Of a DNA stretch of 51,777 nt, positions 7,795 through 49,940 are shown one piece after another; the stretch's first letter is position 1, and every line of letters starts with the position of its first letter. Under the pieces are notes generated by a model. The model worked only from the letters and a program-made list of their open reading frames with translations. It had not been told where the DNA came from and made no database searches. Source of the DNA: Escherichia phage FritzSarasin. Where the stretch lies: the sequence record MZ501069. One strand, written 5' to 3'. The position numbers were made by a program, and so were the translations under genes.

Positions 7795-7812
7795 ATTTAT
7801 GGAGTGCATAAA

Positions 7813-8079
7813 ATGAGCAAAAATTTAAAACTTAAAGTAACTGGCGTTTGCATGATTATTATTGACGGTAAGCGTTATCATCCTGGTGATGAAATTGAAA
7901 TTGAATCTGAACGCATTAATGATTCCGCAATTGAATACCTGATCGCTCGCGGTGATGTGGAAGTTAAAGACAATTCCGAAATTAACGAGCAAATCAAGGC
8001 GAAAGCGGAGAAGAAGCGCAAAAAAGATCCTACCGAGGGCAAGAGCCGCAAAGAGCTAGAGGACGGCGGCGAATATTAA
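7813..8079 (+). CDS. hypothetical protein (head region)
   Basis: ATG 7813 with GGAG 8 nt upstream; 88 aa; K/E-rich C-terminus. Confidence 0.5.
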
Positions 8080-13860: not shown

Positions 13861-13862
13861 TA

Positions 13863-14213
13863 ATGAAGCTGGATCAGTTTAAGTGGTGTACGCAGGTTCA
13901 GAATGGCGGCGGGGCCATGACGTCATCGAATAACGATCGAGAGATTGCATTCGGTAACGGATACACACAGGTAGCATCTGGAGGTTTTAACACAATCCGG
14001 CGAGAGTTTAGCATTGTTTACGTTGGGCTTGACTACAGAGATGTTGTCAATTTCCTGAATGAGCACAGGCTAAAACCTTTCTTGTGGATCATGCCTGATG
14101 GAAGCCCTGGACTGTTCAGGGTGAAAAGCGGTAGCGTCGGCCTTACTCCACTGTCGCCAACCGTTCAGGAAGTAAAAGCCACTTTTACGGAGCAATTTAC
14201 ATCAATGCAGTAA
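13863..14213 (+). CDS. minor tail protein (lambda M-like)
   Basis: About 117 aa right after tape measure; order M-L-K-I-J. Confidence 0.75.
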   Translation: MKLDQFKWCTQVQNGGGAMTSSNNDREIAFGNGYTQVASGGFNTIRREFSIVYVGLDYRDVVNFLNEHRLKPFLWIMPDGSPGLFRVKSGSVGLTPLSPTVQEVKATFTEQFTSMQ

Positions 14214-35635: not shown

Positions 35636-37212
35636 CCCAGCAGTATTGGATTGACAAAAATAACACCATTAATCACACAAACATAATTTCTTTCTTCCAG
35701 CATTGGCAGCAAGTGCCCTTCTATCCTCTTCATTACGCCAGCTTGACCAACGAAAGGTTTTACCTTTCTCGCTGATTCGTACAGGGCGCGAATATTCAGA
35801 ATCCCTTTATTAGCCTTGCCGTGTCTAGTGATCAATTCAATCAATTTGCCCATTTCAGCATCATCACCAGCATAACCAGAAGCATTGGCGGCGCTAATGT
35901 ATGTTTTGCTCAATTCCTGAAACATGATCAGCGCCTCTTGCATTGTTTCCACGTCGATCTCTTTCGACTTCTGCGGGTATCCAGCAGGATTAAACCAGTT
36001 GCGGATAACATGCAGGACGGAAGCAAGCCTGATCACCTGTTTATCCATTTTACCCAGCGCACCGCGTAACATTGTATGAGAATACTTTCCGCCGTCTGCA
36101 AGATGCGGTTCCATATCCTGGCGAGCAATGTTGAGCACTCGCATAGCTGAACGGCTTATTTTCAGCGATATATTTGATTCGCTCATGATGTTATGCACCA
36201 ATTGATAATATTGGGCCTTCAATTCAGGATCCACCGCCTCATAGGTAGAATCACCATTTTCATCAATGAATGAGCGACGGCCTAAGAATGATTCCTCACG
36301 GACCAACAAAAAGCGCTCACTCACACCGATACCGCGCGATCCAGCGTCCATGATTCCGCTTATCGTTTCATCCTGGGCTATAACGCTCATACATCCAAGT
36401 GCGCGAAAACTCATGTTATTGTCAGCATTAGCACGGGCAATTGATACGTGACCATTATCCCACGCCTTAAGCACTAGCTCGCTGTTAGTCTTCCTTTCGC
36501 TATTGGCATAGGTCAAGCCTAACAGGCTGTTAATACTTGTTGCTTCGTCAGATATTACGGCAAAGTTACCTTGCTTGTTGTTGATTTTCGCCAAGCCTTC
36601 TGGAGTGGTATCTGAAACAGGGAAAGTTATATCACACATCTTTTCCAGCTTCTCCTCCAGATCCTCTTTTTCCTGGTATAGAGATTCCATATCAGCGCCT
36701 GATCTTTCGCTTTTCATCTCCTTTGCAAGACCTGCCAACTTTGCCTGTATTTTCTTTCTTTCCTTGCGGCGTTGCTCGTTGATCTTCTCAACTTCCGCAA
36801 TCATCGGAGCAATAGCCATACTGTTGATCGCAGATTTACCAGTTGACGGCGGCTGGCTTGTAACTACGTAAAGCGCAGTCGGCTGATCGGTTCCGTGATA
36901 GTCAACTGTAAAGCGCCCAAGCATAGCGGCAGAAATGCAGCCGATAAAGTGCATGTAAGCCGATGATTCAGGGAATTGAACTGATCGCGCAATGCTGCGT
37001 GATAACTTGCCGACAACATCAATATCATTACCAAGAGAAATTACGGGGTAGCGATCGTGACCGCTATTTACATCCTTTACGTCGCCCCAAAAGCTGGACG
37101 ACTGGCGATAGCCGTTAGCCTGAATTGATACGCGAACTGGCGAAAGGTTCTGGCTTTCAGCCATAGCGATTATTTGCTGTGGAGTTAATTTGTTCGTTTC
37201 TAATGAAAACAT
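35632..37212 (-). CDS. P-loop NTPase of unknown function (DUF3987-like, unverified)
   Basis: 526 aa; Walker A-like PPSTGKS and Walker B-like AVISDEA; charged coiled-coil segment; long C-terminal domain with no recognisable motif. Confidence 0.6.
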   Translation of the reverse strand: MFSLETNKLTPQQIIAMAESQNLSPVRVSIQANGYRQSSSFWGDVKDVNSGHDRYPVISLGNDIDVVGKLSRSIARSVQFPESSAYMHFIGCISAAMLGRFTVDYHGTDQPTALYVVTSQPPSTGKSAINSMAIAPMIAEVEKINEQRRKERKKIQAKLAGLAKEMKSERSGADMESLYQEKEDLEEKLEKMCDITFPVSDTTPEGLAKINNKQGNFAVISDEATSINSLLGLTYANSERKTNSELVLKAWDNGHVSIARANADNNMSFRALGCMSVIAQDETISGIMDAGSRGIGVSERFLLVREESFLGRRSFIDENGDSTYEAVDPELKAQYYQLVHNIMSESNISLKISRSAMRVLNIARQDMEPHLADGGKYSHTMLRGALGKMDKQVIRLASVLHVIRNWFNPAGYPQKSKEIDVETMQEALIMFQELSKTYISAANASGYAGDDAEMGKLIELITRHGKANKGILNIRALYESARKVKPFVGQAGVMKRIEGHLLPMLEERNYVCVINGVIFVNPILLG

Positions 37213-37264
37213 TCGTTAGCTTCTCCTTTGTGGGCCGTAAATTTTAACGGCCCAATACTACCCC

Positions 37265-37285
37265 GTTTTGTCAAAAAGTGCTATT
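37265..37285 (-). promoter_or_regulatory. conserved promoter-module motif, variant with TTGACA (leftward)
   Basis: Minus-strand reading AATAGCACTTTTTGACAAAAC, 22 nt, TAAAAT inside hairpin GGGCCG...CGGCCC; ATPase ATG 74 nt downstream. Confidence 0.55.
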
Positions 37286-37502
37286 TGATCCGCTCTATTG
37301 CAACCAGAAGTCGATCAGGCTGGCGGTCGCTGTAGCATTCTCCTGTAATCCCATCCTTAAACGTAAAGTAAAGCGCCTTATGATATGAAAAACCAATCAG
37401 CCAACCTACCGCCGTTTTTTTGATGGGCCTGACTATATCGCCAGGCTTGAAAGTCTTTGTGGTAGAATTCGTTACTTTGTAACGGTTTTCACTGTTTATC
37501 AC
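37281..37502 (-). CDS. hypothetical small protein (KxGD motif)
   Basis: 73 aa; contains FKPGDIV motif. Confidence 0.5.
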   Translation of the reverse strand: MINSENRYKVTNSTTKTFKPGDIVRPIKKTAVGWLIGFSYHKALYFTFKDGITGECYSDRQPDRLLVAIERIK

Positions 37503-37885
37503 AGATATTTGCCCTCAAACAGATAACAGCCGCCAGCAGAGAATCCGACCTCTTCACGGTACAGGTTCCAGCGGTCGCCGCACTCATCAAAAACATAACC
37601 CGCAACGCTTCCAAGCGGTCGCCCTTTCTCGATCTGGTATCGCTTGCCCTGCTTAAAGTGCTTTTTGCACGGCATGTTATGATCTACAAACGTGCAAAGA
37701 ACGGTTTTTGTGTTAATGGCGCGGTAATCATCTCGGTTTGCTGGAATCCAGCGACTACCCTTAACAAGCGTCTTAACTTGGAACTCTTCCACCTCGATCA
37801 CATCATCACTTCCTGCAATCTTCTGATAAACCGTTTTAAAACGGCCTTTCATCAATACGTTGGTTTCATTACAGATAACATTCAT
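37499..37885 (-). CDS. hypothetical protein
   Basis: 128 aa; driven by motif module at 37939-37959. Confidence 0.55.
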   Translation of the reverse strand: MNVICNETNVLMKGRFKTVYQKIAGSDDVIEVEEFQVKTLVKGSRWIPANRDDYRAINTKTVLCTFVDHNMPCKKHFKQGKRYQIEKGRPLGSVAGYVFDECGDRWNLYREEVGFSAGGCYLFEGKYL

Positions 37886-37938
37886 GATCAGATCTCCTTT
37901 GTTTGTTCGATGTGATTATGCCAGGTTTTTACACCTGG

Positions 37939-37959
37939 CTTTTAACAAAAAGTGCTATT
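37939..37959 (-). promoter_or_regulatory. conserved promoter-module motif copy (leftward)
   Basis: Minus-strand reading AATAGCACTTTTTGTTAAAAG + hairpin CCAGGTGTAAAAACCTGG + CATAAT. Confidence 0.6.
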
Positions 37960-38662
37960 TTGAGTTTGACTCAAAGACGGCGCGAGCAAATCCGCGCGGA
38001 GTGAGGGAGCGGATCATCTTTGTGCGCGATGACTTACCGCCAGTTTTGGCCCAGCCTGGATTATCTTTGTCTTCCTCTTTCGGCAGGATTAAAGCGCGCG
38101 GAGGAATAACAAAGCCGTTGCCAGTCCAGAGGCACGTTTTCTTAAAATAGCGATCCCGTGCCGGAATAATATCAGGGAAGTCGGGATGTTTATCATCTTC
38201 CGGCAGATAGCCAGCGTAATCGCACGGATGGAACGTATAATCAGGCTTTCGCCATAACGTTGACAACTTGCCAACCGGATTTTCGATCATGTAAGGAACA
38301 CCGAAATAATCAGCTATATCAGCCGCGATTCTGCAAGTGTCGGCGGCCTCATCCTGGAACGATGGATTCTCAAGGCGTTTTTTGGCCCAATGGCGAGATC
38401 CGCTATTTGCAAGGTCGGTGCATGGTGGGAAGGCCATAATAAAATCAGGATTGCCCCACTCATTATTGATTGCCTTAACATAAAAAGCATCATCAATCCA
38501 GACGTTAACGTATTCGATATTCTCATGCTGTATGCGCACTGACTGGTAATCACCGTGATCGCCGCCGTCAGCATTAAAGCAAATGCACTTATAGCCATTA
38601 TCAGCCCAATCTTTAACAGCTTTACCAGATCCATCAAATAGGGAGAATATTAAACCTTTATA
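37955..38662 (-). CDS. compact DNA (cytosine-5)-methyltransferase-like protein
   Basis: About 236 aa from ATG 38662 (MYKGLIFSLFDGSGK); motif I FSLFDGSG, PC motif AFPPCTD, ENV-like MIENPVG; shorter than typical C5 methyltransferases. Confidence 0.55.
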   Translation of the reverse strand, partial: YKGLIFSLFDGSGKAVKDWADNGYKCICFNADGGDHGDYQSVRIQHENIEYVNVWIDDAFYVKAINNEWGNPDFIMAFPPCTDLANSGSRHWAKKRLENPSFQDEAADTCRIAADIADYFGVPYMIENPVGKLSTLWRKPDYTFHPCDYAGYLPEDDKHPDFPDIIPARDRYFKKTCLWTGNGFVIPPRALILPKEEDKDNPGWAKTGGKSSRTKMIRSLTPRGFARAVFESNSK

Positions 38663-38675
38663 CATCGTAATTACC

Positions 38676-38900
38676 TCAAAACGGAAAACAGCGCGCACAA
38701 CCATGATCGAAATCGCATCCACAATCATTAACAATCATAGTGGGATCTGCAAATATTGCGCTTGATTCAAGATCCATATCCATATCACCTAAAGCCTCAT
38801 CAAGAGTCTTAATTTTATATGCCACTTCAAGCGCCGCCTCTTTATTTAGTCCGGCATCTTCTGCCATTTGAAGGCGCTCAAAAAAACCGTCCTGACTCAT
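38676..38900 (-). CDS. hypothetical acidic protein with C-terminal cysteine cluster
   Basis: 74 aa; about 16 acidic versus 5 basic residues; ends CGCDFDHGCARCFPF. Confidence 0.5.
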   Translation of the reverse strand: MSQDGFFERLQMAEDAGLNKEAALEVAYKIKTLDEALGDMDMDLESSAIFADPTMIVNDCGCDFDHGCARCFPF

Positions 38901-39013
38901 CGCATAACTCCCTTAATAACAGCCAAGATAATAGCCAGGCCAGCAGCAGTAACCAAAAATCCAACCGCGCCAATAATCGAATAAAAAAAGAAATCAATAG
39001 CTTTATCTATCAT
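38897..39013 (-). CDS. putative small membrane peptide (not in ORF track)
   Basis: 38-aa hydrophobic ORF MIDKAIDFFFYSIIGAVGFLVTAAGLAIILAVIKGVMR with RBS GAGGTGA; stop overlaps next ATG. Confidence 0.3.
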   Translation of the reverse strand: MIDKAIDFFFYSIIGAVGFLVTAAGLAIILAVIKGVMR

Positions 39014-39055
39014 TTTTCACCTCATTTAAAAGGCGGCAAAACGCCGCCAGATTAA

Positions 39056-39283
39056 TTAAAGAGCGCGCCAACTTTGAATATAGAAAGCGTTTTCTTCCAG
39101 TAATTCTTTTACCTGATCTTTATTGTATTTGCGCACCTTACCGCCTGGATGGATACCAATAAGATAGCCGCCTTTGCCCTCGGTGATAGTGATTTGGCTA
39201 ATTCCGCAGGACTTATCAAGTTTTACAGCCACGCGGTGATGAGCGTCAATAGTTGCCATAATGTTTAAAACTTTTGCTTTCAT
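39056..39283 (-). CDS. hypothetical protein
   Basis: 75 aa ORF in leftward operon. Confidence 0.5.
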   Translation of the reverse strand: MKAKVLNIMATIDAHHRVAVKLDKSCGISQITITEGKGGYLIGIHPGGKVRKYNKDQVKELLEENAFYIQSWRAL

Positions 39284-39391
39284 TTAAATATCCTCAATTG
39301 AAATATGAATGACGTGGCGCTCTTTTTCCGTCGCCGCCGTAATGGTCATTTGCAACCGCCACCATCCAAGCGTTTTTGAAAATAAATAGCC

Positions 39392-39604
39392 TCATTTCTT
39401 ATTTTTCAGCTTAAATTTATGACCTGGAACACCAGCGCCAATATACCCATCGTTGTATTCCATTAAATAAAGGTGAAGACCATTATCTGAAATTAAATGA
39501 GGATCTTCTTTGATATTTCCCATTAGCGGGTATTCTTTTCCGCGCGTAAATTTCCAAATTGAGTTATAAGTTTCTACGCATTTAAGTTTTAATTGCTTTG
39601 CCAT
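39392..39604 (-). CDS. hypothetical small protein (FxRGxEY motif)
   Basis: 70 aa; contains WKFTRGKEY. Confidence 0.5.
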   Translation of the reverse strand: MAKQLKLKCVETYNSIWKFTRGKEYPLMGNIKEDPHLISDNGLHLYLMEYNDGYIGAGVPGHKFKLKNKK

Positions 39605-39885
39605 TATGCGATCCCAGTTACGTTAAAACTTACAGCCCTTGTTGCGCTAAATACATAAGCATCAACAGCGCCGCCAAATACACGAATTTTACCCTGGCCG
39701 TACTGCGCATTCATATTTCGCCAAACCGTTCTATTAGAGCAGAATGCGCTACCAGTCTTAATAAGCATATCCATCTCTTTTCTTAGATCGCGATAGTCAA
39801 GCCAGAATCTAAAGGCGCGCTGTTTAATTCGCGCCGCCTTGATTTTTTCTCTTGCGCTATTGAAATCATTCTTTTCGTATGCCAT
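39604..39885 (-). CDS. hypothetical protein
   Basis: 93 aa; start overlaps upstream stop. Confidence 0.5.
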   Translation of the reverse strand: MAYEKNDFNSAREKIKAARIKQRAFRFWLDYRDLRKEMDMLIKTGSAFCSNRTVWRNMNAQYGQGKIRVFGGAVDAYVFSATRAVSFNVTGIA

Positions 39886-40082
39886 TAAATGATCTCCATG
39901 TATGTTTCAAAGCCATTTAACTTGAACAGGCCGTTTTCACATTTGCGCACGTTCCAAGTTAGCCCTGAGTGGTACGCCTCCATATCATCAAGGTCAATGG
40001 TGATTTCAGCACCTTTCTTAAATAAACCTTTTTCGTGAGACTTGTCGCGCTTAACAACTTTAACATCAACCTGATTTTCCAT
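39885..40082 (-). CDS. hypothetical small protein (FKKGAE motif)
   Basis: 65 aa; internal repeat GLFKKGAE / GLFKLNGFE. Confidence 0.5.
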   Translation of the reverse strand: MENQVDVKVVKRDKSHEKGLFKKGAEITIDLDDMEAYHSGLTWNVRKCENGLFKLNGFETYMEII

Positions 40083-40137
40083 CTTTAAATCCTCGTTTGT
40101 TGTCGATGCGGTAAATATACCAACTTACCGCATACGA

Positions 40138-40158
40138 CTTTTAACAAAAAGTGCTTTT
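40138..40158 (-). promoter_or_regulatory. conserved promoter-module motif, variant copy (leftward)
   Basis: Minus-strand reading AAAAGCACTTTTTGTTAAAAG + hairpin GCGGTAAGTTGGTATATTTACCGC (TATATT in loop). Confidence 0.55.
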
Positions 40159-40565
40159 TATTCCGTGGTGTCGATAGTGATTGGCCGCAACTCCTGGAGC
40201 GTCACACGATGATCGCGAATAATTGATTCTTTATCTTTCAGGCCATTGTAGCAATTTTGCGCTCTCTCTTTAAATCGGCCTGCATAACAAAGGGTGGCCC
40301 GTCCATTCTCGCGATTCGTTGCAATTACGCGGTAAATAGGCCGTAATTCCTCTTCAAATACTGGTCGGAAAGCGTAACTTTCAAAGCCAGTGCCATAGAA
40401 TCGGTTATCATCGTCACGCGAGATGTAAAGAGGTTCGCGATAATCATCAAGAACATACTCATCGCCATATTTTTCATCGCGCAATACGGCGTATTCAGCG
40501 CCTTTTGTGAAAGTCCATGCGTGACTGGTGTTTTCGCCAATGAATTTAAGAGACTGCGATACCAT
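40158..40565 (-). CDS. hypothetical protein (FTKGAEY motif)
   Basis: 135 aa; contains WTFTKGAEY. Confidence 0.55.
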   Translation of the reverse strand: MVSQSLKFIGENTSHAWTFTKGAEYAVLRDEKYGDEYVLDDYREPLYISRDDDNRFYGTGFESYAFRPVFEEELRPIYRVIATNRENGRATLCYAGRFKERAQNCYNGLKDKESIIRDHRVTLQELRPITIDTTE

Positions 40566-40579
40566 TTTTTGATCTCCTG

Positions 40580-40807
40580 TTAGTAAGTGATTGAAGAAAT
40601 ATCATCAAAGCCCTGGAATTCCGCATTCCATACCAGGAAGTTTGAGAGATTCTCACAACGATACCAGCCGCCGCTCAATTCCATGTATGTAGCATAACCG
40701 CCAGGGATAGCCTTAACAGCGTAGCGCTTATGGTTGCGAGTGATGAAAATCGCAAAACGTTTGTCGTTTGTCTGGTCGATTGCTTTCTGGTTGGCGACTA
40801 CTGACAT
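40580..40807 (-). CDS. hypothetical protein
   Basis: 75 aa; driven by motif module at 40864-40885. Confidence 0.55.
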   Translation of the reverse strand: MSVVANQKAIDQTNDKRFAIFITRNHKRYAVKAIPGGYATYMELSGGWYRCENLSNFLVWNAEFQGFDDISSITY

Positions 40808-40863
40808 TTTGAAAATCCTCTGTTTCGTTTCGATGCGCTTACTATACCAATCAGCAGCGCATC

Positions 40864-40885
40864 GTTTTTAACAAAAAGTGCTATT
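40864..40885 (-). promoter_or_regulatory. conserved promoter-module motif copy (leftward)
   Basis: Minus-strand reading AATAGCACTTTTTGTTAAAAAC + hairpin GATGCGCT...AGCGCATC with TATAGT. Confidence 0.6.
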
Positions 40886-41148
40886 TAGTCCAGGAATTCG
40901 ATTTCACGCTCTCCAGTTAACGGATCCACAAGCCAGAATCCGAGCGCTTCGCCGTGAACACCGCCATAGAATCCAAGAGCCGTCAGATCTTCACCTTTAA
41001 CGAATACCAGGTTTCCGCTACGGCTTACGTGAGACACGTTAACGATAACCGGAAATGTGCGATCCTTAAATGCTGGCCGCAGGGCGTAACACCCGTTATT
41101 GAGCAAACGTGCTTTGCGCTTAACTGGAATAGGTGCATTAATTTTCAT
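40885..41148 (-). CDS. hypothetical protein (FVKGEDL motif)
   Basis: 87 aa. Confidence 0.55.
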   Translation of the reverse strand: MKINAPIPVKRKARLLNNGCYALRPAFKDRTFPVIVNVSHVSRSGNLVFVKGEDLTALGFYGGVHGEALGFWLVDPLTGEREIEFLD

Positions 41149-41160
41149 GGTTATTACTCC

Positions 41161-41586
41161 TTATCGTAAAGATTTAAAGACGTATAGTTTATTGCGGTAA
41201 CTATATATCCGCATTGTTATTTCTCGCAGTGCAATATATTCCTTCCTGTTTTCCGGCAGACTGGCGAGCAATAACAGGCAGTATTTATAAGCGCGGTCAA
41301 GATTCCTTTCCGTGCCCCTGCAATATCCCTTGTTGCGCCTAGAGCGGTACAGCCATAACAATTTCTTGAACATTTCAGATACGCCCATACAGATCACAGA
41401 CTTCGTTGATAAAACAGCGTTGAGACTCTTTATCCTGTTTCTCAAACATCGCACGGCACTCATAGCGGTGATTATGCACGATGACAACAACCATATTTCA
41501 GGCGCTGACGGGTGACGCGCGGAAGCGTCGCAGATTGAAACATCCATACCCATCTCATGTGCTTTCTTGATCACATCCAACATTTT
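41161..41586 (-). CDS. hypothetical protein
   Basis: About 141 aa from ATG 41586 (RBS AGGAG); unusual composition, coding status less certain. Confidence 0.4.
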   Translation of the reverse strand, partial: KMLDVIKKAHEMGMDVSICDASARHPSAPEIWLLSSCIITAMSAVRCLRNRIKSLNAVLSTKSVICMGVSEMFKKLLWLYRSRRNKGYCRGTERNLDRAYKYCLLLLASLPENRKEYIALREITMRIYSYRNKLYVFKSLR

Positions 41587-41837
41587 TTCTTCTCCTGCAA
41601 TAAGCAAACATCATTGATAAAATCAGCACGGCCCTTAATGTTGCTGATGTGGAACGTCTTTTCAGCGTACAGGCCATCACCTTCAATCACGATCATTACG
41701 CGAGTCGGTTTATTCACGGGCGCACACGAAAAGAGTGGTCGCGCCGGAAGAAATTTAGTAGCCACATCCAGGTTAGCCCTGGCGGCCCTGCAAAACGCCT
41801 CCGCCAGATCCAAATCATTTTCGGTAATCACCGCCAT
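41571..41837 (-). CDS. hypothetical protein
   Basis: 88 aa; start overlaps upstream stop. Confidence 0.45.
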   Translation of the reverse strand: MAVITENDLDLAEAFCRAARANLDVATKFLPARPLFSCAPVNKPTRVMIVIEGDGLYAEKTFHISNIKGRADFINDVCLLQEKKKCWM

Positions 41838-42109
41838 TACTTCTTGATCTCCTCACTGATAAATTTCAGCACCTGACGCAAGAAAACCTCGTTGTTGATG
41901 GTCGCTGGCAATTCTTCTTTCACTTCTTGCGGCAGATAGATATTGCCGTGCCAGGTCAAGCAATCGTAGTTGATACGATAAGAGCAAAGCCACTCGCAAT
42001 CGTTATCTGCTTCCCAAATGCAGAGTTGCAGAACATCGCCAAAATCTTCAACAGTCAGATCCAGACCGTGACGCTTAGCGAAGTTGAAAGTGGTTTTGCT
42101 GATGTTCAT
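41837..42109 (-). CDS. hypothetical protein
   Basis: 90 aa; first gene of leftward unit from the 42168 module. Confidence 0.55.
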   Translation of the reverse strand: MNISKTTFNFAKRHGLDLTVEDFGDVLQLCIWEADNDCEWLCSYRINYDCLTWHGNIYLPQEVKEELPATINNEVFLRQVLKFISEEIKK

Positions 42110-42167
42110 TGCTATCTCCTGAGCGGTTCGTTTCGATGTGTGTAATGTACCCGATCAGACGGCCTGA

Positions 42168-42188
42168 GTTTTAACAAAAAGTGCTATT
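42168..42188 (-). promoter_or_regulatory. conserved promoter-module motif copy (leftward)
   Basis: Minus-strand reading AATAGCACTTTTTGTTAAAAC, about 22 nt, TACATT; ATG about 80 nt downstream. Confidence 0.55.
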
Positions 42189-42742
42189 TGACGGTTAGCG
42201 CCAGGATTGTGATCGAAATAATCAAAAGTAATCATTCGTAATCAAATCAAGTCAAAATGATGATTGCCTTTGCAAATTTGATGAGAAAAGTAATCACGTT
42301 TAATCATTGGTTGCAGGGGAGATAGTGAAACCTTCCCCTCTTGCCTCACTTTTTTGCCTGGCTGTCAGTGGTTGTTGTCTTTTGTTCACCCCTGTTACCG
42401 ATTTCAGGCGGCGTGTTTCCGCGCGGTTTTCCGGTGTAGCGAAAACGGAAAAAACAAAGAAAATCCTTTATAATACATTGAAAATAAAGATTATTTATTT
42501 ATATATATCTATAATGTTTTCTTTTTGTTCTCACTGTTACAGTGCTTTTTGTTGGTTATGGTGTGGTTGTGTGTGGGCATATATGGATAGTTGCGCGCGC
42601 GGCGGATTGCATATGTATATATACTTTTTCCGGCGGATTGCGTTAACAGCGTGAACAGAAAAATAACAGCCGTGAAATCAATAACTTGCGCATGATTTTG
42701 TAGTTTTTTGATATTGGTAACGTTTTGAATACAACAAAAACA

Positions 42743-42770
42743 TTGACACGCACCAAATAGCTTTTATAAT
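42743..42770 (+). promoter_or_regulatory. consensus sigma70 promoter (TTGACA-N16-TATAAT)
   Basis: Perfect -35 and -10 hexamers about 30 nt upstream of ATG 42802. Confidence 0.65.
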
Positions 42771-42801
42771 GCGCCAACAGTCAACAACTGGAGGAAAGGA
42801 A

Positions 42802-43266
42802 ATGGAACAGAAGACCACTAAGGACTATTGCGATTGGCTTCGCGAGCTTGGTCGCCGCCTGGCTAGTGGCGATATTGAAGAGTATAAAATGTCACTAATT
42901 GACCTGGCCGGAATGTTAAGCGGTGACGACTGCTACAAGATCACGCGCAGTTCATCCTACAGCCGGACCATTATCAACCGCGTTCCAGAAGTAAGGGCCG
43001 CAGGTCGGGTAAGTATCAAGGTCGAGGAAACGGAAGATGATAAATTTTACGTTTTCCGCATGGTGCGCGAATCGAAAAGGAAAATCATCACACCCGAAGA
43101 ATTGCCAGCCATAAAGGCAAGGGCGATCAAAAAGTTTGCCGATCGCTTACTGGCAGCAATCCCGAACATCGTGGACCTGGAGGGTGATAAACTGGCTGGA
43201 GCTTGTGAGGGCGTAAGCCGCTACCAGGATATGATTCGCGAAATCATCAAAGAGGAGGAGCAATAA
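42802..43266 (+). CDS. hypothetical early protein
   Basis: 154 aa from ATG 42802 (RBS GGAGGAAAGG); track start 42769 lies inside the -10. Confidence 0.55.
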   Translation: MEQKTTKDYCDWLRELGRRLASGDIEEYKMSLIDLAGMLSGDDCYKITRSSSYSRTIINRVPEVRAAGRVSIKVEETEDDKFYVFRMVRESKRKIITPEELPAIKARAIKKFADRLLAAIPNIVDLEGDKLAGACEGVSRYQDMIREIIKEEEQ

Positions 43267-43526
43267 TGAAAAAGGCATTAATCGGCGTTTTGGCGGCAAT
43301 GACACTCCTGACCGGATGCGAAAAGGCATCAGAATCAACGGTTGTCGTAGGCGTGGAGTCAGATTTCAAAGTCGGTCGCCTGTTCACTGTTGACGGATGC
43401 ACAGCATACAGATTCTATGATAACGGTCGCGCGATCTATTACACCAATTGCAAAGGCGCAACGGATAGCACGTACAACAGCGGAAAGAACGTAATGCACC
43501 AGCAAGTCACAACAGATATTAAATAG
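43266..43526 (+). CDS. putative lipoprotein
   Basis: 86 aa; signal peptide with lipobox LLTGC; stop TAG embedded in the next motif copy. Confidence 0.6.
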   Translation: MKKALIGVLAAMTLLTGCEKASESTVVVGVESDFKVGRLFTVDGCTAYRFYDNGRAIYYTNCKGATDSTYNSGKNVMHQQVTTDIK

Positions 43527-43542
43527 CACTTTTTGTTAAAAC
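43522..43542 (+). promoter_or_regulatory. conserved promoter-module motif copy (rightward)
   Basis: AATAGCACTTTTTGTTAAAAC + hairpin GCCAGGCGCAAAGCCTGGC + CATAAT; ATG 77 nt downstream. Confidence 0.6.
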
Positions 43543-43598
43543 GCCAGGCGCAAAGCCTGGCATAATAGCCTCATCGAAACGAGATTGAGGAAACAAAA

Positions 43599-43784
43599 AT
43601 GGCACGTCGCATCACCAAAGACCTTAAAGTCCTGAACAAAGAAAACGTAGTTAAAATCCTAGTTATCTGGGGCTACAACGAAGAAACAGCAAAGCAGAAG
43701 GTAGAGGCGGGTTATGACCTGGCTGTAAAAGCAATGCCAAACGACGACGCCAAAGGCATTGCAAACTATGTAGCTTTCTTTTAA
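43599..43784 (+). CDS. hypothetical small protein
   Basis: 61 aa with RBS GAGG. Confidence 0.5.
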   Translation: MARRITKDLKVLNKENVVKILVIWGYNEETAKQKVEAGYDLAVKAMPNDDAKGIANYVAFF

Positions 43785-43799
43785 TTAGCAGGTGAATAA

Positions 43800-43985
43800 A
43801 TGAAAACGAAATTAGTCCATAAATCAGAAATCAAGATCGGCGATACTGTGATTCACAACGGAGAGCTTAGAACGGTTGGCAAAGAGTCAATAAGCCACGA
43901 TGAATTTATGGGGATCTTGTTGTTCGGTGACTCTTATCGTCTTGGTTACAAGATGGTTGAGCTTGTGGAAGAAGTGAAATTCTAA
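43800..43985 (+). CDS. hypothetical small protein
   Basis: 61 aa; stop TAA embedded in the next motif copy. Confidence 0.5.
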   Translation: MKTKLVHKSEIKIGDTVIHNGELRTVGKESISHDEFMGILLFGDSYRLGYKMVELVEEVKF

Positions 43986-44005
43986 ATAGCACTTTTTGTT
44001 AAAAC
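43985..44005 (+). promoter_or_regulatory. conserved promoter-module motif copy (rightward)
   Basis: AATAGCACTTTTTGTTAAAAC then CCAGGCATAAT. Confidence 0.55.
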
Positions 44006-44084
44006 TCAAAAACGATAACCAGGCATAATAAATCACATAGGGCGGCACGGCGTCGCCCAGTTAAACCAATCAGGAGAAAGCACC

Positions 44085-44978
44085 ATGTTAAAACTTGCTG
44101 ACATTAAATTCCCGATCACCTTCGAATCTCGTGGTGTTGGTCATTACGTTTTTACCGATGAGAAAACATGCCATAACGTTTGGTTGCACAGCGATAAGTT
44201 AAGCCCATCAACAATGGAGATTCAGCACTTTATTGATGCGCATAATCAGCACTACAACTCAATCCGTGACTACGGCTACGCAATGCCAGGCTACACATGC
44301 TTGCACTACAAGCCATATAAGGGCCAGGTGTTACCAGTGCGCTCACCGGAACGTGCAGAGATTCCGATGGTCCACATGAAAACCTGCGACTACAAAAAGC
44401 TGTGGTGCTTAAGTGTGGACAATATCAAGTATCCGATCACGTTCTACACGGTTGGTAATTCAACGATTCGCTTCACATCGCGCGACAATGGCGTTTATAG
44501 CGATGGTACGAAATCAGAGTTGAAAGTTGATTTCTTTGTCAACGGTCACAACAAATTCAATCCGCACAACGAAGAGGATAAAGTGTACTACGTGGAAGAC
44601 ATTACAAAACACTTGTTTGGAGAAACTCCATTCGGCGGCGGAAAGACGTCAATTCAAAAAATCATTGGCGAGGAGATCCACAAAGCGGCTGCCGAAATGA
44701 AAGCGCCTGGAGGCTGGCGTATTGATAAGAGCGCCTTTGCAAATCAAGAAATCGTAACGCAGGGCGCGATTGAAGATATGCCAGTTGCAGCCACGCTAAA
44801 AGGAGTCCGGCTTGATGATGGTGTGTGGTTTGAAGTAACGGCCACACCAAAGACGATCGAGATTCATGATGATGTTGTTATCCTCCTGCTTCACTACGGC
44901 GGCACTAAAAATCGGACTGTTGCAGGTGAGATCAGCATCAAGCGCGGAACGATGGTTAAGTGGAAGGTGAAGATTTGA
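44085..44978 (+). CDS. hypothetical protein with internal tandem repeat
   Basis: 297 aa; N-terminal repeats IKFPITFESRGVGHYVFTDEKT and IKYPITFYTVGNSTIRFTSRDNG. Confidence 0.6.
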   Translation: MLKLADIKFPITFESRGVGHYVFTDEKTCHNVWLHSDKLSPSTMEIQHFIDAHNQHYNSIRDYGYAMPGYTCLHYKPYKGQVLPVRSPERAEIPMVHMKTCDYKKLWCLSVDNIKYPITFYTVGNSTIRFTSRDNGVYSDGTKSELKVDFFVNGHNKFNPHNEEDKVYYVEDITKHLFGETPFGGGKTSIQKIIGEEIHKAAAEMKAPGGWRIDKSAFANQEIVTQGAIEDMPVAATLKGVRLDDGVWFEVTATPKTIEIHDDVVILLLHYGGTKNRTVAGEISIKRGTMVKWKVKI

Positions 44979-45054
44979 GTTTGTTCACTGCGGCGCACGT
45001 CGCCGCATGGATCGGATTGTTTGCCTACCTGTTTAGCTTTTATTGAGGTGAGAG

Positions 45055-45207
45055 ATGGCTACCTGGATTTTGCTGATTCTTATGATTGATGGCGGCGTTG
45101 ACCATATCGAAATGAATAGCCAGCAATCTTGCATTGAGGCACGAGAACAGATCAAGAACGACAACAGGTTTTATGCGTACACTCACACGCTATGTATTAA
45201 GAAATAG
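45055..45207 (+). CDS. putative small membrane peptide (not in ORF track)
   Basis: 50-aa ORF with RBS GAGGTGAGAG; hydrophobic N-terminus; stop TAG embedded in the next motif. Confidence 0.35.
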   Translation: MATWILLILMIDGGVDHIEMNSQQSCIEAREQIKNDNRFYAYTHTLCIKK

Positions 45208-45223
45208 CACTTTTTGTTAAAAC
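45203..45223 (+). promoter_or_regulatory. conserved promoter-module motif copy (rightward)
   Basis: AATAGCACTTTTTGTTAAAAC + GGGGCCAGG TATAAT GGCC; ATG 74 nt downstream. Confidence 0.6.
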
Positions 45224-45276
45224 TCAAATGTGGGGCCAGGTATAATGGCCTCACTTTCAACGAAGGAGATAAAACG

Positions 45277-45507
45277 ATGTACATTAAAAAGAAGATGAAA
45301 TGCGTTTCCGTTAACTATGCTTGCTCTGGTATGTTCAAGCCTGGCGAAATCTATACAGCGCAAAAACTGAAATCATCAACCGGATCTTTTTACGTGAGCA
45401 ATAGTAAGGGGCATCGCATGTTCCTGAACGGCGGCGAAGGCACTAAGGTTATGGCACACGCTATGGTAATGGCTGAATTTGAGGAAGTGAAAGATGAAAA
45501 CAAATAA
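45277..45507 (+). CDS. hypothetical small protein (FKPGEIY motif)
   Basis: 76 aa from ATG 45277 (RBS AAGGAG); track start 45214 lies inside the promoter module. Confidence 0.5.
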   Translation: MYIKKKMKCVSVNYACSGMFKPGEIYTAQKLKSSTGSFYVSNSKGHRMFLNGGEGTKVMAHAMVMAEFEEVKDENK

Positions 45508-45715
45508 TCGCGTCAAGCACAGGTTTACTGATAACCACGGCGACGCGATTGATGTATACAAGTTCGGCGATCGCGTGTTTATTGATGGCACGTTTGAAGG
45601 TGGGCGCAGGCCGGATTTTAGGTCGATACTTACCGTTGACCAAGTGCGCAAGCTGGCAGATAAGTTAAATGATCTGGCAGATGAAATAGAATACAAGCAA
45701 ATCCATTTTAATTGA
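45494..45715 (+). CDS. hypothetical small protein
   Basis: 73 aa; overlaps upstream gene. Confidence 0.5.
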   Translation: MKTNNRVKHRFTDNHGDAIDVYKFGDRVFIDGTFEGGRRPDFRSILTVDQVRKLADKLNDLADEIEYKQIHFN

Positions 45716-45726
45716 TAGGTTTGATA

Positions 45727-46269
45727 ATGAAAAAATACACTTTCGAACTGTGGGGCAAAAAGTACGAATTAATCACCAGCAAGCCGATTGTTATCGTTGA
45801 CCTGGACGGCACACTATCGGACGGATCGCATCGTTTGCATTTGCTGCCAACTGAAAACTTGCACCTTACGGAATCGTGGCGCGAGTTTAACAGGGCCGCC
45901 GCCGGAGATTCACCTATTAAAAGCACTATCGCGGTTATTAACGGTTTATGGGTGTCGGGATTTGCCATCGTCATCTTGACCGGACGCAGCGACGAGGTTC
46001 GCTATGAAACCTGCAAATGGTTGAATGAGAACGGCGTGAAGTTTGACGAAATCATCATGCGCCGCCAGGAGGACAACCGAAAGGATACGGTTATCAAAGA
46101 AGAAGCCTTGCGCGCTATTGGCCTGGACAACATTGTTTGCGCCTTTGACGATTCGCCGAACGTGGTTAAGCACTTCCGCAGCCTGGCAATCACAACCTAT
46201 CAGGTCACGGAATACGACAAGCCGCACGCTCACCTGCAATCTCACGGCGTGGAGGAGTTGCAGAAATGA
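45727..46269 (+). CDS. HAD-superfamily phosphatase (nucleotidase / polynucleotide 3-phosphatase-like)
   Basis: About 180 aa; HAD motif I IVIVDLDGTLSDG, motif II ILTGR, C-terminal FDDS. Confidence 0.6.
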   Translation: MKKYTFELWGKKYELITSKPIVIVDLDGTLSDGSHRLHLLPTENLHLTESWREFNRAAAGDSPIKSTIAVINGLWVSGFAIVILTGRSDEVRYETCKWLNENGVKFDEIIMRRQEDNRKDTVIKEEALRAIGLDNIVCAFDDSPNVVKHFRSLAITTYQVTEYDKPHAHLQSHGVEELQK

Positions 46270-46475
46270 TCCTGAATGTAGCATATGCTAACCCTCGCGG
46301 CTGCAATATATACGGCTTTAAGGTTGGCGCGATGGTCAACGCCAGGATAAACGAAAAAGGCGTATTAGTTGTCAAGTCCCCTAAAACTGGCATGGATATG
46401 CGCATCAAGGAGAACGGCGGAAGATTGTTTATCAGGTCAATATCTGGTCAAACGCTCGCAACGTTCACAAAATAG
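46266..46475 (+). CDS. hypothetical small protein
   Basis: 69 aa; stop TAG embedded in the next motif copy. Confidence 0.5.
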   Translation: MILNVAYANPRGCNIYGFKVGAMVNARINEKGVLVVKSPKTGMDMRIKENGGRLFIRSISGQTLATFTK

Positions 46476-46491
46476 CACTTTTTGCAAAAAC
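46471..46491 (+). promoter_or_regulatory. conserved promoter-module motif copy (rightward)
   Basis: AATAGCACTTTTTGCAAAAAC + hairpin GGGCTTGCGGTATAGTAAGCCC. Confidence 0.6.
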
Positions 46492-46546
46492 AGATTATCG
46501 GGCTTGCGGTATAGTAAGCCCATCGACAACGAAAGAGGAAGCGGCG

Positions 46547-46846
46547 ATGTTAGTACGCAATGCGATTTATAAATTCACAAACGAGATGGGGGTTCACCTT
46601 TACCACGTAAACCATCAAGGCAACACCTCAATCGCGATGTATCGCGACGCTCGCGGGAAGTGTAGGCCTTCTCTGCGTGGCAGAATTTCTCCTGCGTTCT
46701 TCATGTTTAGATGGTATGCAACAGAACAAAGCAACCATAACCATTGGAATAAAGTATTGATTGCAGGAGGCCGAATTGTTGCCAGTCACGTAGTCGATCC
46801 TTGCAAACTAACCAGTCGCCAGCTTCGCAAAATGGCGCGCAAATAG
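46547..46846 (+). CDS. hypothetical protein
   Basis: 99 aa; flanked by near-identical modules at 46471 and 46842. Confidence 0.5.
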   Translation: MLVRNAIYKFTNEMGVHLYHVNHQGNTSIAMYRDARGKCRPSLRGRISPAFFMFRWYATEQSNHNHWNKVLIAGGRIVASHVVDPCKLTSRQLRKMARK

Positions 46847-46861
46847 CACTTTTTGTTAAAA
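46842..46861 (+). promoter_or_regulatory. conserved promoter-module motif copy (rightward)
   Basis: AATAGCACTTTTTGTTAAAA + hairpin CGGCTTGCGGTATAGTAAGCCC. Confidence 0.6.
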
Positions 46862-46917
46862 TCAACTTTACGGCTTGCGGTATAGTAAGCCCATCAACAA
46901 CAAACGAGGATTAAATC

Positions 46918-47181
46918 ATGGCTAACAAGATCGAGTTTTTTAAAGCGGTAGACATTATCGACGGCGCGCCTAGCTTCTTTGCCATCCATTCTATTGACGG
47001 CAAGGATATTGGGTACAACGTTATCCGTCGAGATGGAATCTCAAAACTTAGTGATCTGGTAGGTCATGTTGTGGCAAACGGTAAATGTGCATGGCCCGAT
47101 TCACCGCGAGAGCCACGCCGCCGCGACATGGTAGAGCCTGTTCTGCTTTACACTCTGTTAGTAGAAGGAGAAAATAAATGA
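46918..47181 (+). CDS. hypothetical protein
   Basis: 87 aa with RBS GAGGA. Confidence 0.5.
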   Translation: MANKIEFFKAVDIIDGAPSFFAIHSIDGKDIGYNVIRRDGISKLSDLVGHVVANGKCAWPDSPREPRRRDMVEPVLLYTLLVEGENK

Positions 47182-47363
47182 TTTGGTTACTTGCTTTTTT
47201 GGTTGTTTTTCTTTACATTTCAGGCTTATTCACGTTCCGCGCGTTGGTGAAATATTCTGACACGACAGACAAGGACGATAAAATCGTTCTCGCTTTCTGG
47301 TTTGTTTGGGTGTGGTTAGCAATTTACGAGATCATCAGAGACAAACAGAAATTTGAGTGGTGA
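47178..47363 (+). CDS. putative small membrane protein
   Basis: 61 aa with two hydrophobic helices. Confidence 0.45.
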   Translation: MIWLLAFLVVFLYISGLFTFRALVKYSDTTDKDDKIVLAFWFVWVWLAIYEIIRDKQKFEW

Positions 47364-47423
47364 TTCTTGCTATGGCGCATTCATGCAGTGCGCCATGTTG
47401 AGAAAACCTAAAGGGGGGGGGGA

Positions 47424-47576
47424 ATGATGCGTAACTTTGAAAAAATCATTACCAAAAAGAAGCTTCGCGGGTACGATGAGCATGTGGAGCTTGTGAAAAA
47501 GCAACGCAAGAAGCGCAACGAAGACAAGAAGCGCGGGAAAAAATTTAATGCGATTTTTCGCTATGGAGGAAACTAA
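47424..47576 (+). CDS. putative small basic protein (not in ORF track)
   Basis: 50-aa K/R-rich ORF directly after a G10 homopolymer; stop abuts next ATG. Confidence 0.3.
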   Translation: MMRNFEKIITKKKLRGYDEHVELVKKQRKKRNEDKKRGKKFNAIFRYGGN

Positions 47577-47768
47577 ATGCAATTGCCACCATTTAACGAA
47601 AAAAGCGAAGAGATTGCCAAAACTGCATGTCACCTTCGAGAGCTTGCCGACATGATAGAGCGCGGTCAGGTTATGATTGTCAATATGACTATCAAAAGCG
47701 AGAATAGAAATTTCAAGGTTTTAAGCGAGACAACAGAAATTACCGTCTTGAAAGCAAGGGGAGAGTAA
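47577..47768 (+). CDS. hypothetical small protein
   Basis: 63 aa with RBS GGAGGA. Confidence 0.45.
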   Translation: MQLPPFNEKSEEIAKTACHLRELADMIERGQVMIVNMTIKSENRNFKVLSETTEITVLKARGE

Positions 47769-47770
47769 TC

Positions 47771-48361
47771 ATGAAACGAGACATTATCATCCTTAATGGG
47801 CCTCCAGGTTGCGGGAAGGACACTATTGCAGCTTACCTAACGGGCCATCGTTACCCAGCGGTTAAGGCATCGTTCAAGCAACCTATGTTCGACATTGCTT
47901 TTTCTATGCTTGGCCCGACTCGATACGATGAATTTATGGATCTGTACAACGACCGAGAGCAAAAAGAAAAGCCTCAAGTTATCTTAGGCGGCAAGTCACC
48001 TCGACAATTCATGATCTGGATTAGCGAGGATGTAATGAAGCCAGTTTTTGGGGATCACTATTTCGGGCGTCGAATGGTTGAAGAGATTCACGAGATGTAC
48101 CGAGATTTGGCGGTTGTGATCAGTGATGGCGGATTCCCCGAAGAAATCAAGCCGCTTGTTAAGGAAGGGCATGAAGTGCATATTTGCCGATTGCATCGCG
48201 ACGGCTTCACGTTTGCTGGCGATTCGAGAGACTACATTGACCTGAGCGGTTATCACTATCGAATCCATCACTATGACTTCCAATTGCAGGACGGCAAGCC
48301 GGAAATGGCTGTAAACGAGATCGTCAATACGGTCAAATGGAAGCACACACAGATTAAATAG
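47771..48361 (+). CDS. P-loop kinase, dNMP-kinase-like
   Basis: 196 aa; N-terminal P-loop ILNGPPGCGKDT; later VISDGG and HICRLHR blocks resemble phage dNMP kinases (from memory). Confidence 0.55.
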   Translation: MKRDIIILNGPPGCGKDTIAAYLTGHRYPAVKASFKQPMFDIAFSMLGPTRYDEFMDLYNDREQKEKPQVILGGKSPRQFMIWISEDVMKPVFGDHYFGRRMVEEIHEMYRDLAVVISDGGFPEEIKPLVKEGHEVHICRLHRDGFTFAGDSRDYIDLSGYHYRIHHYDFQLQDGKPEMAVNEIVNTVKWKHTQIK

Positions 48362-48376
48362 CACGAATTGCTAAAC
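48357..48376 (+). promoter_or_regulatory. conserved promoter-module motif, variant copy (rightward)
   Basis: AATAGCACGAATTGCTAAAC + hairpin GCGGGGTTATCTGCCCCGC + TATAAT; ATG 75 nt downstream. Confidence 0.55.
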
Positions 48377-48431
48377 GCGGGGTTATCTGCCCCGCTATAA
48401 TGCGCACATCAACAAGCAAGAGGAAATTACA

Positions 48432-48812
48432 ATGGTTAACATCCGAAAAATCCGCGTCGGCACTAAATTCTTAGTTACTTATGCAATTCCCGATAGCGGA
48501 ATGAAGAAGGGCCAGATTGTTAAGGTTGATAGCAAAAGGTTCGGAATCCCTGGTATCAATGGCTATCTAATCAATAAAGATCTTGGATTCGACGGCTTCG
48601 CTATCCGTGCGCTTGAGGGTATTGTTGCCACTCTTAAGCGAATCACTAATCATCGCGGTTGTCCAATCAAGACGATTAAAGCGCCAATAAATTACGGCAA
48701 ACTGGATAATCGTCGAATCCGCCGCCTGGCGCGTAACGCGTTAAAATTCCGTGGCGTAGGCGATGATTTCTACTATGGATACAAGAGGATTGCGCGCAAT
48801 GCTGGGAAATAA
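48432..48812 (+). CDS. hypothetical protein
   Basis: 126 aa; basic. Confidence 0.55.
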   Translation: MVNIRKIRVGTKFLVTYAIPDSGMKKGQIVKVDSKRFGIPGINGYLINKDLGFDGFAIRALEGIVATLKRITNHRGCPIKTIKAPINYGKLDNRRIRRLARNALKFRGVGDDFYYGYKRIARNAGK

Positions 48813-48911
48813 CAATAACGCAACGAATCCTAAGCCACCTTTTGATTTTCATTCCGCAATGATTGCGGTATTATCAATGCTACTTTTTCTTTATAGCATG
48901 AGGGCGCTACT

Positions 48912-49160
48912 ATGGTTTTTAACGCATTGAAACGACTGTTTAAGCCGGAATACCGGATCGTATTTTGCCGCGACTGTTCTACTTATCATGTGCAGCGACG
49001 CAGCTTAGGCGGCAATTGGCACTATGTTACAGACGACTTTTTCGGCATCATTGCCACTGAATTTAAGTATTACAGTGATGCTTATATGTACGTCAAGAAT
49101 CGCCACCGCTTACGCAAGTGTCGTTTTTCCGTGCTGATTCACGTTAATGATTGTTACTGA
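48912..49160 (+). CDS. hypothetical protein
   Basis: 82 aa ORF. Confidence 0.45.
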   Translation: MVFNALKRLFKPEYRIVFCRDCSTYHVQRRSLGGNWHYVTDDFFGIIATEFKYYSDAYMYVKNRHRLRKCRFSVLIHVNDCY

Positions 49161-49727: not shown

Positions 49728-49940
49728 ATGAAAATCAAAATCACCAAAATCGACACTATCAACGGCGACGGATCAATCACTCTTGAGCAATGCGGTTTGG
49801 TTGTTGGTGATGTGCTGGAAGTTGACGGACATTTCAGCGACGGATCTTATTGTGTTATTGCGCCGCGTAACAGCGAGTTTATCAAGGCTGGCGACAATAT
49901 TAGTGTTAACCATGACGAATGCGAGGTAGTAGAAGAATGA
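49728..49940 (+). CDS. hypothetical small protein
   Basis: 70 aa with RBS GAGGAAAG. Confidence 0.5.
   Translation: MKIKITKIDTINGDGSITLEQCGLVVGDVLEVDGHFSDGSYCVIAPRNSEFIKAGDNISVNHDECEVVEE

Follow-up and report, generated by a model that had tools for sequence, protein, structure and literature searches.

Small proteins of the accessory region and their motif

The window analyzed here is the whole 51,777-nucleotide stretch of record MZ501069 (51.8 kb), a T1-like siphophage, Escherichia phage FritzSarasin (Warwickvirus, Drexlerviridae). This work deals with a set of small proteins encoded in its accessory regions, which carry a similar short motif and of which at least six probably share the barrel scaffold of Gp54, the CapRel-SJ46 trigger of phage Bas11. 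The region 37000-49000 matched Escherichia phage tonnikala (Drexlerviridae, Tempevirinae, Warwickvirus) with 97.3% identity over 92% of the length, and SECphi27 showed ~96% identity to the same region. The small proteins studied fall in two divergent blocks of small genes, nearly all annotated in the relatives as “hypothetical protein.” The leftward block runs from ~42109 down to 35240, and the rightward block starts at ~42769, behind a sigma-70 consensus promoter on the + strand (42743-42770; TTGACA, 16 nt, TATAAT; 12/12) located in the 660-bp divergent intergenic region 42110-42768. A crude promoter scan of 37000-49000 showed no enrichment (18 found vs 22 expected), and hence promoters for each single gene were unsupported.

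Seven of these proteins, named A to G here in order of position, had been listed in an earlier note as carriers of a recurrent motif, and two more, I and J, were added in this analysis. All seven open reading frames (ORFs) were present in the window, on the strands and at the coordinates given below, with the peptides that had been quoted for them. The consensus proposed for the motif, F-x-[KRP]-G-x-[ED]-[IY], described B (FTRGKEY), C (FKKGAEI), and D (FTKGAEY), but not the other four proteins. The register differs in A and F (F-K-P-G-[DE]-I-[VY]), the peptide of E (FVKGEDL) ends in a leucine that is off the consensus, and that of G (FKVGAMV) departs from it at two positions. A looser form, F-x-x-G-x-x-[IVLY], was found in all seven proteins and at two sites in J (37499-37885).

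The enrichment of the motif was gauged against residue shuffles in 43 early and 44 late proteins, early timing being taken from gene position. The strict consensus was found three times in the early proteins (0.03 expected). The loose form was found nine times (3.9 expected, P ~0.02), and 11 times in the late proteins (7.4 expected). The P values were obtained after the fact and, since B, D, and J are homologous (see below), the counts stand for fewer independent events than they imply. A short, loose, and biologically meaningless pattern, picked by eye among many small ORFs, would agree with a consensus that fits three of the seven proteins and with an enrichment of the loose form of only about two-fold. 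More telling than the counts is the place of the motif. It starts at residue 18 in A and G, at 19 in B and D, at 20 in F, and at 21 in C, and only in E does it come later, at residue 49.

Protein C is a homologue of Gp54

Protein C (39885-40082, - strand; 65 amino acids (aa); FKKGAEI at residues 21-27) matched the Pfam family PF25180 (“phage antiviral trigger protein Gp54”) with 130.7 bits and an expectation (E) value of 1.7e-38, the gathering score being 27. It also matched the crystallized Gp54 of phage Bas11 with an E value of 4e-17 (PDB 9AXB; the sequence is also that of entry 9ERV). No match to PF25180 was obtained at E ≤ 1 for A, B, D, E, F, G, I, or J.

The Gp54 of Bas11 is a non-essential protein of 66 aa whose function is unknown (PMC11578894). 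Its structure is a beta-barrel of six strands, the first two of which are joined by a prominent loop; SH3 is the nearest fold, the 3-10 helix of SH3 being replaced by the sixth strand, and this topology was rated by the authors as very rare (PMC11578894). Gp54 directly binds the pseudo-zinc-finger of the toxin-antitoxin sensor CapRel-SJ46 and thereby activates it, and in the complex the strand 1-2 loop adopts a strand conformation and clamps the target (PMC11578894). Binding to CapRel is abolished in the escape mutant G24D, and both G24 and I25 lie within the interface (PMC11578894).

The motif glycine of C (F21-K22-K23-G24) is the CapRel escape position G24, in the numbering of the aligned sequence, and the tetrapeptide F-K-K-G was at least 90% conserved in the Gp54 family. 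The homologues from SECphi27, Bas5, Bas8, and Bas10 fail to activate CapRel-SJ46, and that of Bas10 gains activation only when V7A and V25I, the Bas11 residues, are both introduced (PMC11578894). Since C carries V7 and A25, the window copy is, by analogy with the Bas10 homologue, probably not a trigger of CapRel-SJ46.

B, D, F, and J form a sequence superfamily

Four further proteins or domains are, as judged by sequence comparison, homologous to one another. These are B (39392-39604, - strand; 70 aa; FTRGKEY at residue 19), the N-terminal domain of D (40365-40562, - strand; residues 2-67 of the 135-aa protein 40158-40565; FTKGAEY at residue 19), F (45277-45507, + strand; 76 aa; FKPGEIY at residues 20-26), and the C-terminal domain of J (37508-37711, - strand; residues 59-126 of a 128-aa protein; FKQGKRY at residue 77). 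Protein J, absent from the earlier list, matches phrog_2684. Within the window, B and D found each other by phmmer with E values of 3-5e-5, and both touched phrog_14152.

We compiled 81 loci of related phages, with the helicase and kinase/phosphatase genes as anchors, and added six GenBank genomes; the resulting local library comprised 8,639 unique ORFs. When this library was searched with jackhmmer, limited to domains, B recovered J (60-126), D (6-67), and F, and F recovered J, B, and D, all of them in register and along the full length of the domain (55-70 aa); J was reached from both starting points with E values of 1e-20 to 1e-26. Furthermore, when one subfamily at a time was left out, hhalign returned it to the rest with values of 99.2% for F, 99.1% for J, 97.8% for B, and 88.3% for D (E value of 2.9e-6 for D). 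The MAFFT alignment of the superfamily, which comprised at least 21 subfamilies in the 81-locus sample, followed the pattern K-[LV]-K-C-[VT] ... [FY]-x-x-G-x-x-Y ... D-x-x-G ... F-E-E-[VI], with F20, Y26, L50, and G55 almost invariant. The Phe and Tyr of the motif were thus almost invariant in this family, and the Gly was frequently Asp, Glu, or Asn.

One subfamily (s1; 56-aa proteins of related phages, MKVRC...PFIVGAVY...) corresponds to Pfam DUF7244 (PF23896), a family with no known function, which it matched with 91 bits. This subfamily was recruited by the jackhmmer search seeded with F. No window protein matched the Pfam model at E ≤ 1. When 1.84 billion representatives were searched exhaustively with the profile, no more than 39 hits emerged, none of them from the families of Gp54, A, G, or E, which means that the family is narrow or too divergent for HMMER at this database size.

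The domain was found in several architectures: alone (55-80 aa), with an extra domain (D and J), in tandem pairs, fused to a kinase/phosphatase in tonnikala, and in at least four repeats. The last arrangement was that of the long, acidic proteins P0074 (388 aa) and P0080 (571 aa), with at least four tandem copies (VKCx...FTVGxxYxV...DDxGD); P0076, from the same search, seems to be unrelated to them, with repeats rich in Gly and Cys. The C-terminal half of D (40158-40364, - strand; residues 77-133) is a different conserved module (phrog_6503, E value of 7e-9), and the N-terminal domain of J is variable and is swapped for another one in some phages (P0008 and P0019).

Additionally, an in-frame leader upstream of F (45214-45276, MLKLKCGARYNGLTFNEGDKT) resembles the first half of the family domain (KLKC + TFNEGD). 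It is kept upstream of different F-type cassettes (Henu8 and L047) and overlaps a promoter-like site (10/12) at 45217-45246. Instead of coding for protein, the leader may be the scar of a recombination event or a promoter region.

Predicted fold of A and F and comparison with SH3 and KOW domains

Protein A (37281-37502, - strand; 73 aa; FKPGDIV at residues 18-24), in whose family the Gly and the Val of the motif are conserved, was predicted to be a six-stranded, SH3-like barrel of the Gp54 type. The earlier note had pointed to a shared barrel fold, and structure prediction, run for A and F, yielded in both cases a model with the Gp54 fold, with six strands and the motif at the end of the strand 1-2 loop. 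Homologue searches had returned close relatives only (21, 18, and 7 proteins), and the alignments used for prediction were accordingly shallow. A Foldseek search of BFVD also retrieved many uncharacterized proteins of 63-81 aa with a similar predicted fold (template modeling (TM) scores of 0.6-0.72), from T1-like phages and from some other enterobacterial phages.

The resemblance of the motif to a signature of small beta-barrels, of the KOW or the SH3-like type, had also been proposed. Its SH3 side was supported by the Gp54 fold of C and, weakly, by borderline matches of the A family. The profile of this family met the CD2AP SH3 domains with an E value of 0.04, and the alignment placed A-family EYRYKVTHSATKTFKPGDIVRPIKK..GWLIG opposite ..GWLEG of CD2AP and FKPGDIV opposite RVGEII of SH3. 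Hits to Pfam SH3_9 (PF14604) and SH3_1 (PF00018) were obtained in three to four of the eight A-family members, all of them below the gathering cut-offs. This alignment with SH3 would make the motif the counterpart of the junction between the RT loop and strand b of classic SH3 domains. On the contrary, no Pfam match supported KOW (PF00467; ribosomal protein L24, Spt5/NusG), the KOW signature G-x-x-V-x-V-x-x-G-x-x-K-G was absent, and the structural scores were far below those of the Gp54 match. KOW was thus rejected.

With the SH3 domains of CD2AP and RecD and with FeoA, the Gp54-type barrels share a five-stranded core, an RT-type loop, and, after this loop, a strand of the form hydrophobic-x-x-G-[DE]-x-[IV], and the A family aligns with CD2AP SH3 over both the motif and the GW(L/W)xG strand. 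They differ from these domains in the sixth strand that takes the place of the 3-10 helix, and there is no evidence of proline-rich peptide binding in Gp54-type proteins. The likeness to Gp54 of Bas11 is closer: C is a direct homologue, the size (65-76 aa), the strand order, and the long strand 1-2 loop are the same, F-x-x-G occupies the same position (G24), and the genes lie in the accessory region of phages of the same family. The difference is that some members in the window and in its relatives are embedded in larger proteins, as in D, J, the tandem repeats, and the kinase fusion of tonnikala.

The three groups as one scaffold

These results indicated that at least six proteins (A, B, C, the N-terminus of D, F, and the C-terminus of J) are built on one Gp54-type barrel scaffold and represent a diversified paralogous family, a reading to which we give a probability of about 0.7. 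From the rare topology, the size, the motif position, and the neighborhood that A, Gp54, and B/D/F/J have in common, we infer that the three groups also share ancestry beyond the shared fold.

Several results weigh against this conclusion. The hhalign comparison of C with the superfamily gave at most 14.6% (range 1-15%), that of A with the superfamily 4-8%, and that of A with C 0.2%. Unrelated families of the window gave a background of 8-13%; the values of A and C are within or near it, and hence sequence comparison alone cannot join A, C, and B/D/F/J. When the superfamily profile was run against the PDB sequences, Gp54 was not retrieved. The fold was modeled for A and F only and assigned to B, D, and J through their homology to F; the alignment behind the model of A comprised eight close sequences, and of the five models computed for it two failed (predicted local distance difference test (pLDDT) values of 41 and 38). 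The structural alignments to Gp54 reached an identity of only 14-21%. Moreover, the hairpin pattern is generic and occurs as well in unrelated late proteins and in beta-propeller blades. The matches of the superfamily profile to “Cake” beta-propellers in the PDB were dismissed as generic hairpins, being sums of repeats of 5 bits each, and such 5-bit blade matches are themselves a sign of how generic the pattern is.

Convergence would account for part of this picture. Small beta-barrels recur by convergence, and A, Gp54, and B/D/F/J could be unrelated small beta proteins that have in common a barrel and a generic turn signature. The between-group hhalign and hidden Markov model (HMM) comparisons at background level would be expected in that case, as would the replacement of the Gly by Asp, Glu, or Asn in many B/D/J-type members and the fit of the pattern to propeller blades and to the 11 sites in late proteins. 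Nevertheless, the fold is not a barrel of any kind but a specific six-stranded variant, the one rated very rare by the Gp54 authors; size, motif position (residues 18-21), and long loop coincide; and all the genes, some of them direct neighbors, fit into a 10-kb span of the same accessory regions. Unrelated origins are therefore considered unlikely.

A motif without biological meaning is far less probable still, and we regard it as almost untenable. The demonstrable homology of B, D, F, and J, the solved structure of the C family with a functionally important motif glycine, and the convergence of the A and F models on the Gp54 structure contradict it for A, B, C, D, and F; for E and G it is possible.

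Proteins E, G, and I

The membership of E (40885-41148, - strand; 87 aa; FVKGEDL at residue 49) was not supported. No jackhmmer link to any other group was obtained, the hhalign values against all of them were at most 1.9% (0.1% against the superfamily), and the motif was not conserved in divergent homologues (VFAKVSEC). An apparent link between E and Gp54, found in an iterative search with the whole ORF, was rejected as a read-through artifact. In L046, a contig similar to 2019SD1, a deletion has fused the end of the E homologue (19 codons) in frame to a Gp54 homologue (13714-14136, - strand), and the resulting 140-aa ORF misled the searches with whole sequences. After this artifact, the searches were restricted to domains. 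On these comparisons, E lies outside the family.

Protein G (46266-46475, + strand; 69 aa; FKVGAMV at residue 18) is at most a candidate member. Its best hhalign value was 19%, against one of the subfamilies; against the superfamily as a whole it was 7%, and the background was 8-13%. The gene occupies a slot for exchangeable cassettes that follows the gene of the polynucleotide kinase/phosphatase (46254-46470 in the window and L001 10601-10785): across ~46254-46470 the DNA showed no similarity to that of the close relatives, and the flanks were 82-98% identical. The kinase/phosphatase ORF has 185 aa here and 236 aa in tonnikala, where the C-terminal extra 60 aa form a clear B/D/F/J-type domain (SFIKGKVYDV, 51.9 bits). 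This domain, fused to the kinase, occupies the slot in which G sits in the window.

A single family that includes all seven listed proteins, as the earlier note had suggested, could draw on several of these features. The motif of G starts at residue 18, and its alternating hydrophobic stretches are compatible with six strands; its slot holds a clear family member in tonnikala; its hhalign values are the highest among the non-members; and A is an example of fold similarity with no sequence signal. The motif of E at residue 49, unconserved, and the artifact behind its sole link to Gp54 speak against the inclusion of this protein, and in the homologues of G from Klebsiella phages the motif reads FRERMRI. 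Neither the E nor the G profile found any match in the PDB. We consider the inclusion of all seven improbable. The idea of one diversified family of small SH3- or KOW-like barrels is thus retained for A, B, C, D, and F, five of the seven listed, fails for E, and leaves G as a candidate. Profile-profile comparison, which the earlier note had proposed as a check, was significant within B/D/F, together with J, and not significant between A, C, and the B/D/F/J group.

Protein I (48432-48812, + strand; 126 aa) carries MKKGQIV at residue 24 in its N-terminal domain (48432-48656, approximately residues 1-75). Its family merged with subfamily s5 by jackhmmer (1e-5), and one s5 member was matched by the superfamily HMM built without s5 (E value of 6e-5); the direct leave-out hhalign value was only 4.2%. 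Protein I is therefore a probable extra member, through the transitive s5 sequence link only.

Other observations in the region

Hairpins of the type xxGDx[VI] were also seen in three further small proteins of the + strand, at 43800-43985 (IKIGDTVIH), 49728-49940 (LVVGDVLEV), and 7804-8079 (YHPGDEIEI). The first two showed a weak mutual hhalign value (15%), and the protein at 49728-49940 was weakly matched to G (15%) and to I (50%, over just 17 columns). Inside the leftward block, between the genes 39056-39283 and 38676-38900, lies a strong terminator-like hairpin (39032-39048, - strand; GGCGGCGTTTTGCCGCC then TTTT; 7 pairs, 6 of them G-C).

A homologue of G with 91-93% aa identity was present in a group of “Campylobacter phage” records (17-20 in number; MG065640-MG065687; host Campylobacter jejuni) whose DNA is typical of E. 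coli T1-like phages. These are either mislabeled or contaminant genomes or cases of an unexpected host range.

Proposed role and meaning of the family

In the scaffold proposed here, the motif marks the place where the long loop after strand 1, equivalent to the RT loop of SH3 domains, passes into strand 2. Its Phe and its last hydrophobic residue would pack in the barrel core, and the Gly (Asp, Asn, or Glu in some subfamilies) would form the turn. Each paralogue may bind a different host protein by beta-sheet augmentation, with the exposed loop and the strand 2 edge as the contact surface, as Bas11 Gp54 does with CapRel; the host proteins could be either takeover targets or defence systems. 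The conflict with host defences would have driven their diversification, through duplications, the replacement of cassettes, and fusions of domains. By analogy with Gp54, we tentatively consider it possible that these proteins are dispensable early binding modules for different host proteins.

Full-text literature searches found Bas11 Gp54 only in the original paper and its preprint, with these relatives not described, and nothing in the literature searched connects DUF7244 with the window proteins and with the Gp54 fold. Pfam keeps Gp54 and DUF7244 separate, and A, B, D, F, and J of the window match neither. The family link thus appears to be undescribed so far. What is added are new members of a family of known kind and a wider extent of it, not a new kind of system.

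Gp54, published as an isolated CapRel trigger of rare topology, becomes in this way one of a gene family, and a group of many subfamilies is outlined, of which Pfam covers just one part, under DUF7244. The recurring motif finds an explanation as a structural element that lies in the only known interaction interface of the fold. Five to six “hypothetical proteins” receive an annotation; they recur in hundreds of T1-like phage genomes, among them those of the BASEL collection and SECphi27, which are used in defence research, and they provide candidates to be tested as triggers or inhibitors of bacterial defence systems. More speculatively, and still doubtful at present, Drexlerviridae may keep a repertoire of Gp54-type barrels as fast-evolving binders, each of which, adapted in its RT-like loop and strand 2 edge, would neutralize or decoy a different defence or housekeeping protein of the host. 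Sensors similar to CapRel would then have evolved in response, recognizing members of the scaffold; the repertoire would turn over by the swapping of cassettes in fixed slots, among them the one that follows the kinase/phosphatase gene; and A, B, D, F, and J would be inhibitors or triggers of other defences.

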